Source: Octopus vulgaris
Lineage: Eukaryota
DNA length: 64,000 nucleotides
Assembly: GCA_951406725.2 (NCBI GenBank)
Contig: OX597818.1
Span: forward strand, 38,936,001-39,000,000
Direction of reading: 5' to 3'
The notes under the pieces are model-generated. The model ran no database searches and was not told where the DNA came from. It saw only the letters and a list, made by a program, of their open reading frames with translations. The translations under genes were made by a program, and so were the position numbers. Shown here in pieces: positions 44,186 through 63,596 of this stretch (positions are counted from its first letter, which is position 1; each line of letters begins with the position of its first letter).

Positions 44186-44278
44186 ATAATAATATCAATA
44201 CTTCAATTAACTGTAATCTAAAGTTTTTCTTTTTATATTTGTAGCTTTGGAACCATTCAGCCCTTCAGTGGCATCATA

Positions 44279-44360
44279 ATGGTAGGCAATTTAATGCCTT
44301 GGTCACTTGCTTGGATCTTCCTTCTTTTGTTATTTAGCAAAGGCAGTAATGCAGGTATTT
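44279..44360 (+). CDS. PCDH15: PCDH15/Cad99C-like cadherin, first coding exon (signal peptide)
   Basis: Polypyrimidine tract and AG acceptor at 44243-44244. ATG at 44279 gives MVGNLMPWSLAWIFLLLLFSKGSNAGI. GTAAGT donor at 44361, phase 1. Confidence 0.75.
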
Positions 44361-44519
44361 GTAAGTATTCTTTACTTTTACTGACAACCCTTATATAAAA
44401 AAAGAAAAGTTCTGTTAATATTTACTAAATATACTTGTATAGCAAGCAAGATAAAATAGATAAATAGATAGAGAGAGAGATTTACTAAAGCAACTAAAAA
44501 ATTTCACTTTATCTTTCAG

Positions 44520-44591
44520 GTGATAATACAAATGGACTGAGTAGTTTCACAATTAAAACACATGAAACAATTGCCAGTGTAACACAACAAG
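44520..44591 (+). CDS. PCDH15: Cadherin coding exon 2 (start of EC1)
   Basis: TTTCAG acceptor and GTATGG donor, phase 1-1. Reads CDNTNGLSSFTIKTHETIASVTQQ, with an N-terminal Cys as in PCDH15-type EC1. Confidence 0.72.
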
Positions 44592-44865
44592 GTATGGATA
44601 TCCGTTACTTCATTCATTTGGCAAGATATTAAATAATGGTTTTATATTTCATTCAGATTAGAGAGTAAAAGTATGTAAATATGTGTGTGTGTGTGTGCAT
44701 ATATATATATATAATAATAATAATAATAATAATAATAATAATGATAATAATAATAATGATAATAATAATAATGATAATAATAATAATGATAATAATAATA
44801 ATGATAATAATAATAATGATAATAATAATAATAATAATAATAATAATAATAATAATAATAATAAT

Positions 44866-45521
44866 GGGAGATGGACAAGAAACAATAAATCATATTATCT
44901 CTGGCTGCCCAGTCCTGGCAACGAAGGAATATATTCACAGACACGACAGAGTTGGGACCTACATACACTGGAAGCTATGCCAAGATTATGGAATAACAAC
45001 AGAAAAAAGATGGTATAGGCACACACCAGAAAAGGTCACAGAAAATGAGAAAGCAACCATATTCTGGGATATGCCAATACACACAGATAGAGAAATTAAG
45101 ACCAACAGACCAGATATAGTTGTCAGAGATCATGAAGGAAAAAATGTTTTCTAATTGATGTATCAATACCAGCAGATGACAATGTGTCTCTAAAAGAAAT
45201 GGAGAAACTTTCAAAATACAAAGACCTGGAAATAGAGGTAACAAGAATGTGGAATCTAAAAACAGAAATAATTCCTATCATAGTAGGTGCATTAGGCATG
45301 ATAAAAAAATATTCAGACAAATACATAACAAAAACACCAGGACTTACAAACACATATAACATACAGAAAATTGCACTACTAGGCACTGCACACATCCTAC
45401 GCAGAACACTTTCAATACAGTAACCATCAGTGCATCACAACAAATCCCAGTACATACCCAAGGCACACAGAGCTGCACTTGGTAGTGAAGTGAAAGCCCG
45501 TTATAAAAATAAAACTACTGA
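44866..45521 (+). mobile_element. R4/Dong-like non-LTR retrotransposon 3' fragment in (TAA)n, intronic
   Basis: ETINHIISGCP..RHDRV (CCHC), NRPDIVV..LIDVSIP..KLSKYKDL (RLE) and QKIALLGTAHILRR. One frameshift at ~45140. (AAT)n on both sides. Confidence 0.92.
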
Positions 45522-45800
45522 TTGATAATAATAATATGAGGGAATATTATTCCAAACTTACAGGGAAAATTCAATTTAGAAATACTAAATCAAATTTCAC
45601 AAAATATAATATATATATATAAATTAGAAAATAAAACACCTTTTATCAATTCAATAATGAAAAGTTAAATTATACCATCTAGAAAATTACATATTATAGA
45701 AAGATTAAATATAAGATAAAGCATATAACTATGATTAAGTAATGTGCAAAATGATAAATAAAACATATATATATATATATATATATATATATATATATAT

Positions 45801-46332
45801 TATTATTACAAAATTGGGATTTTACCAATAGAACTGCAACTCCTATTTCAGGATAACCTTATTGTATGGAATACACATAGAAAGTTATATCCAATAATAA
45901 TAATAATAATAATAATAATAATAATAATAATAATGATAATAATAATAAAATAATACAAGTATTTAAAAAAAACCTACTATAAAATACAATAAAGTTATTT
46001 GAAAAAATATATATAACTTACCTGTTATTAGTCTGTGGGAAAAAAAATATTTTTAATTAATGCAGATTTAAAGTTGTTTTTAAAGTAATCTTTATCTTAT
46101 AAATTCCTGGTATTATAATTATTGTCATCATGGAAGTAGGCCTTCTTTCCCAACAGACTAATAACAGGTAAATTATTTGTTCAAATAATTTTATTGTATT
46201 TTATAGTAGGTTTTTTAAATGCTTTTATTATTTTATTATTATTATTATATTGGATATAACTTTCCATACAATAAGGTTATCCTGAAATAAGAGTTGTGAT
46301 TCTATTGGTAAAATCCCAAATTTGTAATAATA
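45801..46332. repeat. Long inverted repeat / foldback element
   Basis: 45801-46045 is the imperfect reverse complement of 46146-46332, with a ~100-bp spacer. Both ends lie in TA. Confidence 0.85.
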
Positions 46333-60344: not shown

Positions 60345-60555
60345 CCCTTTCGTTACCAACCCAGCTGAAACTGGCTCTGGCTCTTTAGTATAAATGTCTT
60401 GTTTTGAATTCAAATCTTCCACCAAACCTTAGTCACAATTTATGTTCCTAACACTAGCTTAATGATAATGAAGTTATTTTACTAAATTCTTTGTTATATT
60501 TAAAATAATTGAAAGAAACACAGTACATCTCAAAATAAATACAGTAATGAAAGGG
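60345..60555. mobile_element. piggyBac-type MITE
   Basis: TTAA on both sides. TIRs CCCTTTCGTTAC and GTAATGAAAGGG (11/12 match). Confidence 0.85.
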
Positions 60556-61527
60556 TTAAGTAGAACAATAACAGCATCAACTTCACCTGTCCATGAAGGC
60601 CCTGCAACAGCTATGACCACTCCCACTAGCAAAAAGAAAATGCAAGTAGGAAATACATAGTGAACTTAGAGAAAAGGTTGAGGGTAACTGAATTGAGAAA
60701 TGCACTGAAATAGTTATGGCATTGACAGATGAATATAGGAAAGGATAATTATTGTTTTGGCCATGTAGCACAAATAGTATGTCATAAACTGGTGGTAAAT
60801 GGTTACTACAGCAAGAACACTGAGCATGTAAAATGCAATTTGGATGCATTTGCCTGGTATGGAATTTAATATACATGAAAAGGAATTATATAACAGACTG
60901 TCAAAGTTTTGTCCATATGGAGAATGCATATAGAATGGCTGTGATAATGATAATCTTCTCTACTCTAGGCACAAGGCCCAAAATTCTTGGGGATCGATCC
61001 TAGTACACAACTGGTACTTAACTTATCAACCCCGAAAGGATAAAAGGCAAAGTTGACCCCAGCATAATGATGGTGATGACACTGATGAGAGTATTAGTGA
61101 TAGTGATGATGAGCTGAGTGATGATGAGATTGCTGATACTAACATTAACAATGCTAATGCCGACATTAATAAGAAAATATAGAAGGAAAAGGCGAATTTA
61201 TCAGGATCCACATATATATCTATTTTGAAACTATATTACACTCACAAAAGAGGTTACCATCATTAAACCAGAATATAACAATATCCTTGATAGCTCCACA
61301 TTTAAGGTATCATATTTAAGCAAATTTTAAAATGTCAAGCTATACAATAAGTAGTTTTCAGTATTCACGCTTCTCAGTGTCTACAGCTCAGCACTAGTGG
61401 ACCTAGAATGCTCTGTTGTTGTTGTTGTTAAGCAACAAGATGGGTAAGGGTGATTAGGTGATGGTCTAGGGCTTACAGGCGGGAGACCCCAGACCTTGGA
61501 AAAAAAAAACTTTGGTCATCTTGTTGT

Positions 61528-61940
61528 AGTTAGTTAGTTAGTTAGTTAATTTTTTGGCTCAAAAAGCAAAAAGCAAGGCCATGTAGGGGGACATGGAGTT
61601 TTGTACAGGGTGGTGTTCATGTAAAGAGTTCAGGCCACTTGTGGTCAAGGGAGACTTTGAACCGAGCGGTCATTGGCATCTTCACTATCTCGTCCGGCAG
61701 CTTATTCCACAGATCCGCAACCTGGACGGAGAAAGTCCCTCTCCTTCGATTGAGATGAAATCATTGCAGATAGAGCTTTTTGGAGTGACCCCGCAGCCGA
61801 CGCTCTGGAGCAGGAGTGAAGAACAGCTCTTTCGAGAGGTTACACTTTCCGCTTATGATGTTGTGAGCAAGAATGAGATCACCACTGTGTCGTCGTTTTT
61901 CTAGAGAATAAAGGTCGAGCGTCTTCAGCCTTTCTTCGTC
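61528..61940 (-). mobile_element. CR1 LINE 3' fragment with (TAAC)n tail
   Basis: Reads EERLKTLDLYSLEKRRHSGDLI..RRLRGHSKKL..FSVQVADLWNKLPDEIV..FKVSLD. Confidence 0.92.
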
Positions 61941-62883
61941 GAGGGCTCTTCATTGATGCCAACACCACTGGGAGGTGGCCCTCAAAGTCGCTGGAAATGG
62001 AGATCTCCAGATTCAAATTCTTGGACACCCAGAATGCTCTCGTTTATATTTAGTGTATCACACACAAATTCCACTATCAGGACAATATCTTGCTCACAGT
62101 TCTCTCATGATATAATATTTAAATGCTTTTCTTAAGCCTCAAAGATCTGTAAAGAATGCTTGTCTTTGTTTTCATGATATTAAGACAGTTTCCACCACCC
62201 CAGATATGATGCAGTTCATATCAAGATACACTGAGACATCGTAGTATGAAATGTTTAACTCAGAAATACAGTGAAGTATATTAATAGATTTGAAAATTTT
62301 ATATATTTTGTAAGTATAGACGCAAGCACAAATAGGCACAGCTGTGGCTGTGAGGTCAAGAAGCTTGCTTTACTGCCATATAGCTTCCAGTTCAGTCCTA
62401 CTTCATGGCACCTTGGCAAAGTGCTTTTTACTTTAGCCCCAGTCAAGCAAAGCTTCGTGAGTGCATTTGATTAATGGTAATTGAAAGAAACCTACCTTAT
62501 ATATATTCATGTGTGTGTGTTTGTGTGTGTGTGTGTGCATGTGTATGTGTGTGTTTGTTCGTATTTCTTTGTCCTGACACCATGTGATAATTGTAAATGA
62601 GTGTCACTGTCACACAAGCAGTGTTGGTGACAAGAAGTGTATCTAGCCATTGAGAACCTGCCTCAATAAACACCTGATAACTCAGATGCAATCATGGAAA
62701 AGTAGATGTTCAAATTATGATTTTACTATTATCTGTATTGTCACACAAAGTTGTGAGAATAGTTGCTTCCAACAAGGTTTGCTTAAATATGTAATATTAA
62801 GTTGAAAGAAAGATCTGAACTCATGTATATAGAGTGACCTAAAATTTAAAAACTGACGATTTTATTTGTCTTTCTCTTTTTAG

Positions 62884-63002
62884 CTGCAAGTCTGAAAGAT
62901 AAATTCTCAGTACAACGATCTACTTCCTTAAATGGATATCAATGGGTTCTCACTCAAATAAAACCAATTGCTACTCAAGGCACATATCAAATGATAGTTA
63001 GA
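62884..63002 (+). CDS. PCDH15: Cadherin coding exon (second half of EC3-like repeat)
   Basis: Branch-point-like CTGAC, polypyrimidine tract, TAG acceptor and GTAAGT donor, phase 1-0. Reads TASLKDKFSVQRSTSLNGYQWVLTQIKPIATQGTYQMIVR. Confidence 0.88.
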
Positions 63003-63401
63003 GTAAGTTTTAAATTTCAGAATGTTTTTACTGTTGAATGCAAATTCATAACATTTACAAAAGTTTATTCTTCATATTCTGTTTTATGTGCTTCAGACCA
63101 ATCATTTTTTACTTTATTTTATAATGCATTCATTATATTTTTGAAATATATTATTCATTTTGTTTAATAAGCAGTTATTCAGAGTTGTGTCAACCAATGC
63201 TAAATGTTTTATCATCTCAGCTCATTTTATTTAAATGTTCAATATTGTGATATTTTATTTCTCCTATTTCTGCACAATTGTATATTTATACTGATTTTAT
63301 GATAAATCTACACATCTTGGTCTATGAGATGAAGAAATTTTTGCTTGCATTCTTAACAATATTTCTCAAATTCATGTCTTTTTTCTACTCCTTTAATTTA
63401 G

Positions 63402-63596
63402 GTTGAAGAACAAAATTATAATAAGCGGTATGCCACAGCAATTATAAACTTGAATGTGAAGCCACAAGATAACTTTAAACCTGAGATTGGTTCACCATCT
63501 ACAGGTTATATATATGAGAATTCACCTCCTGGCACATTGGCTCTTAATAAAGATATAAATGGTCCCATGATAATTACAGTATTGGATAAAGATTTA
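63402..63596 (+). CDS. PCDH15: Cadherin coding exon (EC3-EC4 linker and start of EC4); gene continues past the window
   Basis: TTTAG acceptor and GTAAGC donor, phase 0-0. Reads VEEQNYNKRYATAIINLNVKPQDNFKPEIGSPSTGYIYENSPPGTLALNKDINGPMIITVLDKDL (xEN..GT and DxD cadherin motifs). Confidence 0.92.

Follow-up and report, generated by a model that had tools for sequence, protein, structure and literature searches.

What cadherin do the short coding exons in this stretch of octopus DNA belong to (the window, meaning the whole 64 kb that was analysed), and how long is the protein that they begin? The sequence-only reading had assigned them to a gene of the PCDH15/Cad99C type. PCDH15 is a human deafness protein, the Usher-syndrome cadherin, and Cad99C is a fly microvillus protein. 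Both have eleven cadherin (EC) repeats; the number is the same from flies to humans, a constancy that has been interpreted as a constraint of geometry (PMC2171266). The octopus protein is a giant of ~85 repeats and not an 11-repeat PCDH15-like protein, and this main feature was absent from the earlier reading. Our preferred answer, to which we give a probability of about 0.6, is that the window exons begin a single-copy gene for a cadherin of ~9,200 residues and ~85 EC repeats. It would likely be the mollusc orthologue of Cad99C/PCDH15, grown by tandem copying of what is likely the ninth repeat, and likely a scaffold or tether of apical microvilli. What is read from the sequence itself is the chain of exons with its open frame, the order of domains, the match to Cad99C at both ends, the rhythm of the repeats and their order in other molluscs, and the microvillar role may fairly be inferred from that of Cad99C.

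Exons in the 64-kb window

All six exons lie on the plus strand. Coding exon 1 (44245..44360) consists of 34 nt of 5′ untranslated region and 82 nt of coding sequence (44279-44360, with the ATG at 44279). Its start resembles a signal peptide and it aligns with the N termini of the relatives; because it opens with an acceptor at 44245, an upstream non-coding exon is implied. Coding exon 2 (44520..44591, 72 nt) holds the start of EC1 and completes a conserved N-terminal cysteine, and coding exon 3 (49909..50078, 170 nt) carries EC1 as far as its DRE-type motif. Exon 4 (59431..59545, 115 nt) and exon 5 (62884..63002, 119 nt) belong to EC3, and exon 6 (63402..63596, 195 nt) covers the EC3-EC4 junction. 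The remainder (63597..64000, plus strand) is intron, and the gene continues beyond the window with 171 more exons, the six described here making up less than 3% of the coding sequence.

These six exons had been presented as one spliced chain. All of the AG acceptors and GT donors are in place and the 753 nt are open (251 codons), and that much of the claim stood, but the join of exon 3 to exon 4 did not. The junctions between exons 4 and 5 (59545 to 62884) and between exons 5 and 6 (63002 to 63402) are both joined at GT..AG in contigs of three of the four RNA-like runs. These runs (X1, X5, and X7) represent three studies, the RNA status of the runs being a guess and their contig depth unsuited to ranking expression; the contig of the fourth run holds part of exon 6 only. 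The joins among exons 1 to 3 are based on their splice signals, on phase, and on similarity at the protein level, the last amounting to 14.6 bits versus at most 5.2 in 200 shuffles (132 domain hits reported). A Pfam scan of four window exons gave no family, and exon 6 matched nothing in a word-based search, exons this short being beyond the reach of either tool. The profile and protein searches that gave the relatives had no octopus protein among the matches listed.

The 251-residue product is wrong: it lacks ~190 residues that belong between exon 3 and exon 4. When aligned to a profile built from 11 relatives, the peptide fell into two pieces, at positions 6-121 and 312-454; in the relatives, 163 to 201 residues lie between the two. 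The X7 contig contains 1,066 nt upstream of exon 4, compared to 358 nt in exons 1 to 3. The one loose end listed before exon 4, that of the X5 contig, differs from the end of exon 3. A direct join of exon 3 to exon 4 was rejected; that the phases agree there follows just from each side being phase 0. The missing residues are likely the end of EC1, all of EC2, and the start of EC3, and their exons probably sit in the assembly gap of 100 N at 52182..52281, which likely conceals them. The loose end of X5 was not found in the window or the genome, pattern and tblastn searches of both for the missing EC1-EC3 sequence gave no result, and when a mussel N-terminal protein was searched against the whole genome, only other cadherins came up.

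The predicted gene and its repeat array

The gene is a single plus-strand chain of exons spanning ~420 kb and ending at C5:39,398,762 (the window being C5:38,936,001-39,000,000); its extent past the window is given as ~355 kb. From exon 4 to the stop codon there are 174 exons, all GT-AG, with 8,915 codons and no internal stop, and the coding exons number 177 or more in total, about two per repeat. The product predicted from them is ~9,200 amino acids long, with ~85 EC repeats followed by a membrane-adjacent domain (MAD), a single membrane helix, and an end of the PDZ type. In this model, whose core repeats come from genome sequence alone, 104 residues separate the last EC from the membrane segment, the single hydrophobic helix lies at residue 8,791, and the predicted terminal exon ends in T-x-L, a C terminus of the class I PDZ-binding type. 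Separate searches with exon 6 (one match among 3 candidates scored), with the membrane exon, and with a tail exon each gave a single credible genome locus, and this locus was the only multi-exon array of its repeat type seen, in searches that score the best candidates only and could miss a divergent multi-exon paralogue.

The number of repeats is 85 when counted by exons, and 81 hits were obtained with a linker profile. The middle of the protein consists of 75 repeats that are most like EC9 of Cad99C, each encoded by a phase-0 exon pair, and 74 A-type and 75 B-type modules follow one another in unbroken alternation. Cad99C EC9 was the best-scoring domain for 50 of the 73 internal repeats, and a profile of the internal repeats ranked it first of 33 domains, at 79.9 bits, with the next non-octopus domain at 67.2. 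The array also has a two-domain rhythm, the period-2 statistic being 0.157 against a maximum of 0.037 in 5,000 permutations. Periods 3 and 5 were unsupported, their values being reached by 320 and 4,430 of the 5,000 permutations, respectively.

The calcium motifs of the array are half lost. The EC9-EC9 junction keeps the DxD and xDx motifs of the second domain, and the first domain's DRE and DxND are absent from it. DRE and DxNDN are missing from both the repeat alignment and the EC83-84 linker, as expected of a group with a calcium-free EC9-10 linker. A junction of this kind would bind less calcium than ordinary linkers do. We propose that an EC9 exon pair first doubled into a two-domain unit and that this unit was then amplified, before the split of cephalopods, bivalves, and gastropods; the protein would have been stretched eightfold through ~75 copies of one repeat.

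Kinship with Cad99C and PCDH15 and the age of the giant form

Exon 6 shows 45% identity to the junction of EC3 and EC4 in a fly Cad99C and 32% identity to PCDH15, and the far end of the gene is likewise in register with Cad99C, both of which bear out the family first proposed. The same-numbered segment of Cad99C scored best for 10 of 13 octopus segments. EC3 to EC7 and EC9 matched best the same domain of Cad99C, with EC4 and EC6 as near ties, and in the C-terminal part EC84, EC85, and MAD correspond to its EC10, EC11, and MAD. EC8 and the last repeat, EC83, were out of register, scoring best against EC6 and EC4 of Cad99C, respectively. A full-length mussel relative, P0092, is in register with Cad99C at both ends, including EC1-7. 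The octopus protein resembles the Cad99C of Drosophila and other arthropods in EC3-7, EC9, the last two EC, the membrane-adjacent domain, and the helix, and further in a conserved juxtamembrane tail motif and the class I PDZ-type C terminus. It differs from the 11-EC Cad99C (PMC2171266) in its ~85 EC, 75 of them of the EC9 type, and in a shorter tail without the asparagine-rich part.

A quick-search tree of the membrane-proximal region was built from 37 of 41 rows, four being left out for want of a membrane helix. The octopus, mollusc, brachiopod, and nemertean sequences formed a clade (SH-aLRT, 96), and this clade was sister to Cad99C (SH-aLRT, 98), with Cad99C_Calliphora flagged as a long branch. 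Vertebrate PCDH15 stood in an open fork of the tree, and the link to it is drawn because of the published orthology of Cad99C and PCDH15 (PMC2171266). Only 4 of 13 octopus segments were best in register with vertebrate PCDH15, and among its domains EC6 was best for 32 of the 73 repeats and EC9 for 8. The predicted structure of a C terminus from the cuttlefish cluster, P0404 (mean pLDDT, 71), matched PCDH15 EC10-MAD12 best (Z, 21.9; rmsd, 4.2; 298 aligned), compared to a Z of 18.3 and an rmsd of 7.0 for CDH23. Solved PCDH15 fragments and EC1-7 of the mussel relative align in register, and EC9 lacks DRE and DxNDN in PCDH15 as in the octopus protein; these last two differ in repeat number, eleven in PCDH15 and ~85 here. 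Pfam families ECD and PCDH15_12th had no hit in the relatives scanned, and PF23206 had no match in this genome, a comparison that is uninformative for split exons. With ~85 EC rather than eleven, the protein would be a variant and no standard member of the Cad99C/PCDH15 group, and likely its mollusc orthologue.

The proposed distinction from the clustered protocadherins held as well. Those of this genome are single frames of ~800 amino acids located elsewhere, and in cephalopods they carry 6 or 7 EC in one large exon, unlike the roughly two exons per repeat of the giant.

The gene had been read as a candidate cephalopod link cadherin, and its array is common to oysters and snails. Repeat by repeat, the order is the same in cuttlefish, oysters, and snails, which argues that the form is old and not cephalopod specific, and the array is also kept in limpets. 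In 14 of 16 relatives the repeat order beat all 300 parity-keeping permutations, compared to none of three controls, and oyster P0420 is colinear with the octopus over 7,033 columns at 33%. In the cuttlefish cluster, contigs of 16.6 to 22.7 kb carry uninterrupted coding sequence for 5,104 to 5,252 residues, and 45 of the 48 domains fall on a single diagonal. Tandem paralogues or short versions occur in some lineages; two unionid mussel proteins look complete but are short (3,387 and 3,648 amino acids), with ~28 to 30 repeats out of register. A large Nematostella cadherin that topped a profile search was rejected as an orthologue, being out of register.

Many of these relatives are named "protocadherin Fat 4-like." Entries XP_061181978.1, K1QB61, XP_050391949.2, XP_013411494.1, and KAK3608192.1 share the helix and tail, and the mollusc, brachiopod, and nemertean entries share RN-type linkers and repeat order with the octopus. 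Most are N-terminally incomplete gene models (the longest has 6,920 amino acids) that appear misnamed, and many such database names would need correction. One survey reported PCDH15 as absent from C. gigas (PMC10734073); a giant orthologue would explain that loss and reverse it.

Alternative readings and proposed function

The locus could instead be a lophotrochozoan paralogue of Cad99C/PCDH15, with a normal 11-repeat orthologue elsewhere in the genome doing the ancestral job. Neighbouring paralogues occur in gastropods and bivalves, and the genome search is weak on multi-exon genes. However, three exon searches gave this locus only, no 11-repeat mollusc member of the clade appeared in the top 120 hits of either protein search, and the survey lists no PCDH15 in C. 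gigas (PMC10734073), all of which makes a paralogue very unlikely. Scarcely credible is a giant cadherin of the Fat or Dachsous type, acting in planar polarity or growth control. The large size and the Fat label on most named relatives would agree with it, but it is already contradicted by tail and tree: none of the six relatives scanned had an EGF or laminin-G family hit, the membrane-proximal fold of the P0404 model is like PCDH15 EC10-MAD12, Dachsous fell outside the clade, and FAT4 has no repeat register.

As to function, a mechanosensory link of statocyst or epidermal hair cells, the first option of the sequence-only reading, would be a far longer counterpart of PCDH15 in the vertebrate tip link and would suit the Cad99C/PCDH15 orthology and the EC10-MAD12 fold. 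We consider it unlikely, given that the tip-link partner CDH23 is deuterostome specific in one survey (PMC10734073), that a second-hand report of the giant octopus cadherin points to suckers (PMC6339937), that oysters and limpets have kept the array, and that the two octopus papers among those listed for cephalopod statocysts, hair cells, and PCDH15 use the PCDH15 name without demonstrated orthology. It is also decidedly improbable that the gene is a length-tunable array, in which skipping of exon pairs yields many shorter isoforms, the full 85-repeat form is rare, and the function lies in spacer lengths. Its core exons are all phase 0-0, so any one could be skipped in frame, and the unionid proteins have few repeats. 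Against this stand the long contiguous contigs of the cuttlefish cluster, and the keeping of repeat number and order from octopus to oyster suggests selection on the full length.

We return to the microvillar scaffold or tether. Cad99C is located on microvilli and sets their length via its ectodomain, and matrix binding or self-assembly has been proposed for it (PMC2171266). By orthology only, we infer a long microvillar scaffold for the octopus protein. Its half-calcium junctions would make a semi-flexible filament of up to ~0.4 micrometre, the PDZ-type tail would fasten it to the core of the microvillus, and the ectodomain, in the manner proposed for Cad99C, may support the microvilli or link them to secreted cuticle or matrix, the epithelium of the suckers being one example. 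More tentatively, and with somewhat less than even confidence, we suggest that molluscs amplified the domain beside the calcium-free hinge of an 11-repeat cadherin into ~37 two-domain units, giving one of the longest cadherins on record, that number and order have been fixed since the Cambrian, and that the result is a ruler or spring of ~0.4 micrometre spacing microvilli from secreted cuticle, shell, or sucker lining.

The protein is probably the CDHX of Octopus bimaculoides, compared here by description only, which reportedly has 77 EC and is sucker enriched (Wang and Ragsdale, 2017). Both are octopus cadherins of about the same size, and the counts of 77 and 85 come from different species and counting methods. 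At second hand, a 77-EC octopus cadherin is reported as high in suckers (PMC6339937) and is named CDHX and called "unique" (PMC6110919). Our literature searches found nothing that links CDHX to Cad99C/PCDH15 or describes EC9 amplification, although the original CDHX publication, supplements included, may already contain this. CDHX has been cited as a novelty of cephalopods and would gain an ancestry common to oysters and snails. An ~85-repeat mollusc orthologue would break the 11-repeat rule of Cad99C and PCDH15 and offer a natural test of how ectodomain length affects microvillus shape or link mechanics, and its tandem EC9 linker would present a half-calcium cadherin junction in repeated, crystallisable form.

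Window exons and the giant gene they belong to

In the Octopus vulgaris assembly (2.8 Gb, 227 contigs), where the window is C5:38,936,001-39,000,000, the six exons proposed by the sequence-only reading are real: all lie on the plus strand, have AG/GT ends and total the predicted 251 codons. They occupy window positions 44279-44360 (exon 1, coding part), 44520-44591 (exon 2), 49909-50078 (exon 3), 59431-59545 (exon 4), 62884-63002 (exon 5), and 63402-63596 (exon 6). Junction mapping, proposed as a check, recovered the exon 4-5 and 5-6 joins exactly in contigs from three of four RNA-like runs, spanning three studies and presumed to be RNA. 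Transcript support thus covers exons 4-5-6, and the joins among exons 1-3 are predicted.

The join of exon 3 to exon 4, however, was wrong. In a contig of run X5, the letters before exon 4 differ from the end of exon 3, and a search found them in neither the window nor the genome. A contig of run X7 has 1,066 nt ahead of exon 4, versus 358 nt in exons 1-3 together. The 251-aa peptide aligned to a profile of 11 relatives in two pieces, at positions 6-121 and 312-454, between which the relatives carry 163-201 residues. Because an assembly gap of 100 N (52182-52281) lies inside the exon 3-4 intron, the missing stretch, comprising the end of cadherin repeat (EC) 1, EC2, and the start of EC3, was most likely lost there.

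The gene exists, but it had been underestimated about 35-fold. We examined 450 kb downstream of the window, and profile searches in six frames of the window plus the first 400 kb found cadherin exons on the plus strand only, with none past about 39.36 Mb. From 39,024,001 to 39,355,977, two exon types strictly alternate, all in phase 0-0: 74 A-type exons of about 174-195 nt, covering strands F-G, the linker and A-B, and 75 B-type exons of about 111-153 nt, covering strands C-E. A single contiguous repeat exon that was scanned matched Pfam cadherin above the cut-off. The model, predicted beyond the window from splice signals and homology, runs from exon 4 to the stop in 174 exons, all GT-AG, encoding 8,915 residues without an internal stop. 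Adding exons 1-3 and the roughly 190 missing residues would bring the whole protein to about 9,200 aa. Its 85 EC repeats are EC1-2 (partly inferred), EC3-8, 75 similar repeats and two last repeats, followed by a membrane-adjacent domain (MAD), a single membrane helix, and a tail whose last residues are T-x-L. The gene spans about 418 kb; in genome searches, exon 6, the membrane exon and a tail exon each match only this locus.

Several minor features accompany the gene. The sole A/B exon fusion in the array (L008, C5:39,079,329-39,079,643) suggests one intron loss, and a partial A-type copy in an intron (L023, C5:39,224,078-39,224,179), resembling the exon at 39,228,749, is either what remains of a duplication or an alternatively used exon and was excluded from the model. 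Once coding sequence begins (window positions 44001-64000), CpG counts per 2 kb are 6-33, versus 33-83 upstream, a drop that would be expected of a methylated gene body. Two overlapping plus-strand frames at 55530-56680, between exons 3 and 4, resemble a LINE reverse transcriptase fragment. The plus-strand frame at 44870-45300, just past exon 2, looks like the endonuclease region at the C-terminus of a non-LTR retroelement, and the 166-aa minus-strand frame at 40099-40599 looks like a hAT-type transposase fragment. A 107-bp tandem repeat (52791-53271; 4.5 copies, 95% matches) adjoins the assembly gap. On contig C14, many single open frames of about 800 aa with cadherin matches stand in tandem and represent the expected clustered protocadherins.

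Orthology and age

The proposed PCDH15/Cad99C-like affinity proved right. A 20-exon profile searched against 1.84 billion proteins returned 150 large cadherins, eight with many octopus-type linkers; five of those eight have the membrane helix or the tail in common with the octopus model. Named relatives came from abalone, limpet, freshwater mussel, nemertean, and brachiopod, and the mussel C-terminus as query added oysters, Solemya, and more gastropods. The full-length mussel protein P0092 is in register with fly Cad99C (P0293) over EC1-7 and again at the last three EC repeats, the MAD, and the tail. Of 17 other cadherins tested, none was in register at both ends except a Cad99C-like protein from a tardigrade and, less strongly, PCDH15. 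Apart from the EC1 fragment, EC8, and EC83, all octopus segments (10 of 13) scored best against the same Cad99C segment; for PCDH15 the in-register count was 4 of 13. In a quick maximum-likelihood tree built from the membrane-proximal region with 37 of 41 rows (four lacking the membrane helix were dropped), an octopus-mollusc-brachiopod-nemertean clade was supported at 96 and its pairing with Cad99C at 98, and PCDH15 branched from a polytomy. The cuttlefish-cluster C-terminus, modeled with AlphaFold2 (mean pLDDT 71), best matched PCDH15 EC10-MAD12 (Z 21.9, rmsd 4.2), followed by CDH23 EC25-MAD28 (Z 18.3, rmsd 7.0), structures that may belong to the predictor's training set.

The octopus gene product is 45% identical to a cuttlefish-cluster protein. 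In the cuttlefish-cluster protein P0173, 45 of 48 domains fall on one diagonal with the octopus array, and oyster P0420 gives a 7,033-column alignment at 33% identity that begins at EC23 and reaches the end. One-to-one repeat order exceeded all 300 parity-keeping permutations in 14 of 16 relatives, clearly in 12 molluscs and narrowly in the brachiopod and the nemertean; the permutations were not exceeded by two unionid mussels or any of three controls. The shared order in other molluscs thus places at least 60 repeats, on the sequences compared, before the cephalopod-bivalve split. Most database entries lack the N-terminus, and all 75 repeats are known from octopus alone. We consider the architecture, orthology, and age of the giant cadherin demonstrated or strongly supported.

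Octopus seems to have one gene, versus neighboring paralogues in freshwater mussel (P0092, P0277, P0278) and limpet (P0008, P0026) and in abalone, where model P0004 reads into the N-terminus of the next copy. Limpet, nemertean, and brachiopod proteins (P0008, P0020, P0026, P0027) carry a furin-like basic run in the F-G loop of the second-last EC, which is only partial in octopus; the ectodomain may be cleaved or shed. Nematostella P0001, a cadherin of 7,285-7,723 aa with 52 profile hits, is out of register with the octopus array and was set aside as a separate giant cadherin.

Repeat origin, calcium linkers, and possible role

Among 73 internal repeats, Cad99C EC9 was the best match for 50 and EC6 for 15, and the internal-repeat profile ranked Cad99C EC9 first of 33 domains. 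Against PCDH15, EC6 was usually best (32 of 73), and the EC9 reading therefore rests on Cad99C. The repeats average only 26% identity (maximum, 43%), so the amplification is old. Repeats of like parity resemble one another more than those of opposite parity do (0.157, versus a maximum of 0.037 in 5,000 permutations), pointing to a putative two-domain amplified unit.

Across the 74 octopus linkers, x-R-N-x-N replaces the standard DxNDN (R or K in 60, N in 54). The DRE motif is not conserved, while DxD (61 and 56) persists, as does the top xDx (59). PCDH15 EC9 is likewise described as lacking DYE and DXNDN while retaining DXD and XDX (PMC5120219, in part). An EC9-EC9 junction would therefore have second-domain ligands only. 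Such ligands serve mainly calcium site 3, and these linkers would therefore bind calcium partially. The ligands are better kept in even-numbered than in odd linkers.

What we infer of calcium occupancy, location, and job is that this single-pass protein with a PDZ-type tail would be a microvillar scaffold or tether. An EC repeat is about 4.5 nm long, and 85 could extend up to about 0.4 micrometre, with half-calcium linkers making the ectodomain semi-flexible. It might brace microvilli or fasten them to a secreted cuticle or matrix. The closest rival to this microvillar role would make the protein a hair-cell link, ahead of a spacer tunable by splicing; a paralogue standing beside a normal orthologue ranks below both, and a Fat-type role comes last.

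Relation to published cadherins

An Octopus bimaculoides cadherin with 77 EC domains is reported as highly expressed in suckers (PMC6339937) and called "the unique CDHX" (PMC6110919), both citing Wang and Ragsdale 2017. Compared by published description only, our gene is probably CDHX (roughly four chances in five), and the protein itself has probably been published under that name. The literature searched, in which Wang and Ragsdale 2017 figures through the papers citing it, describes neither a link to Cad99C nor an EC9 amplification; the Cad99C/PCDH15 orthologue identity, the EC9 origin, and the mollusc-wide conservation were likewise not found in it. As far as their available portions go, two octopus papers use the name pcdh15 without showing orthology, one stating that its own protocadherins lack homology to those of vertebrates, and PMC9068888 and PMC12961712 add nothing further. 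Cad99C is described, in the accessible part of PMC2171266, as having 11 repeats and residing on microvilli, whose length its ectodomain sets; it is apparently no membrane glue and may bind matrix or self-assemble. According to PMC10734073 (in part), C. gigas has lost PCDH15 and CDH23 is restricted to deuterostomes; C. gigas K1QB61 and XP_034314272.1 are members of this giant-cadherin family.
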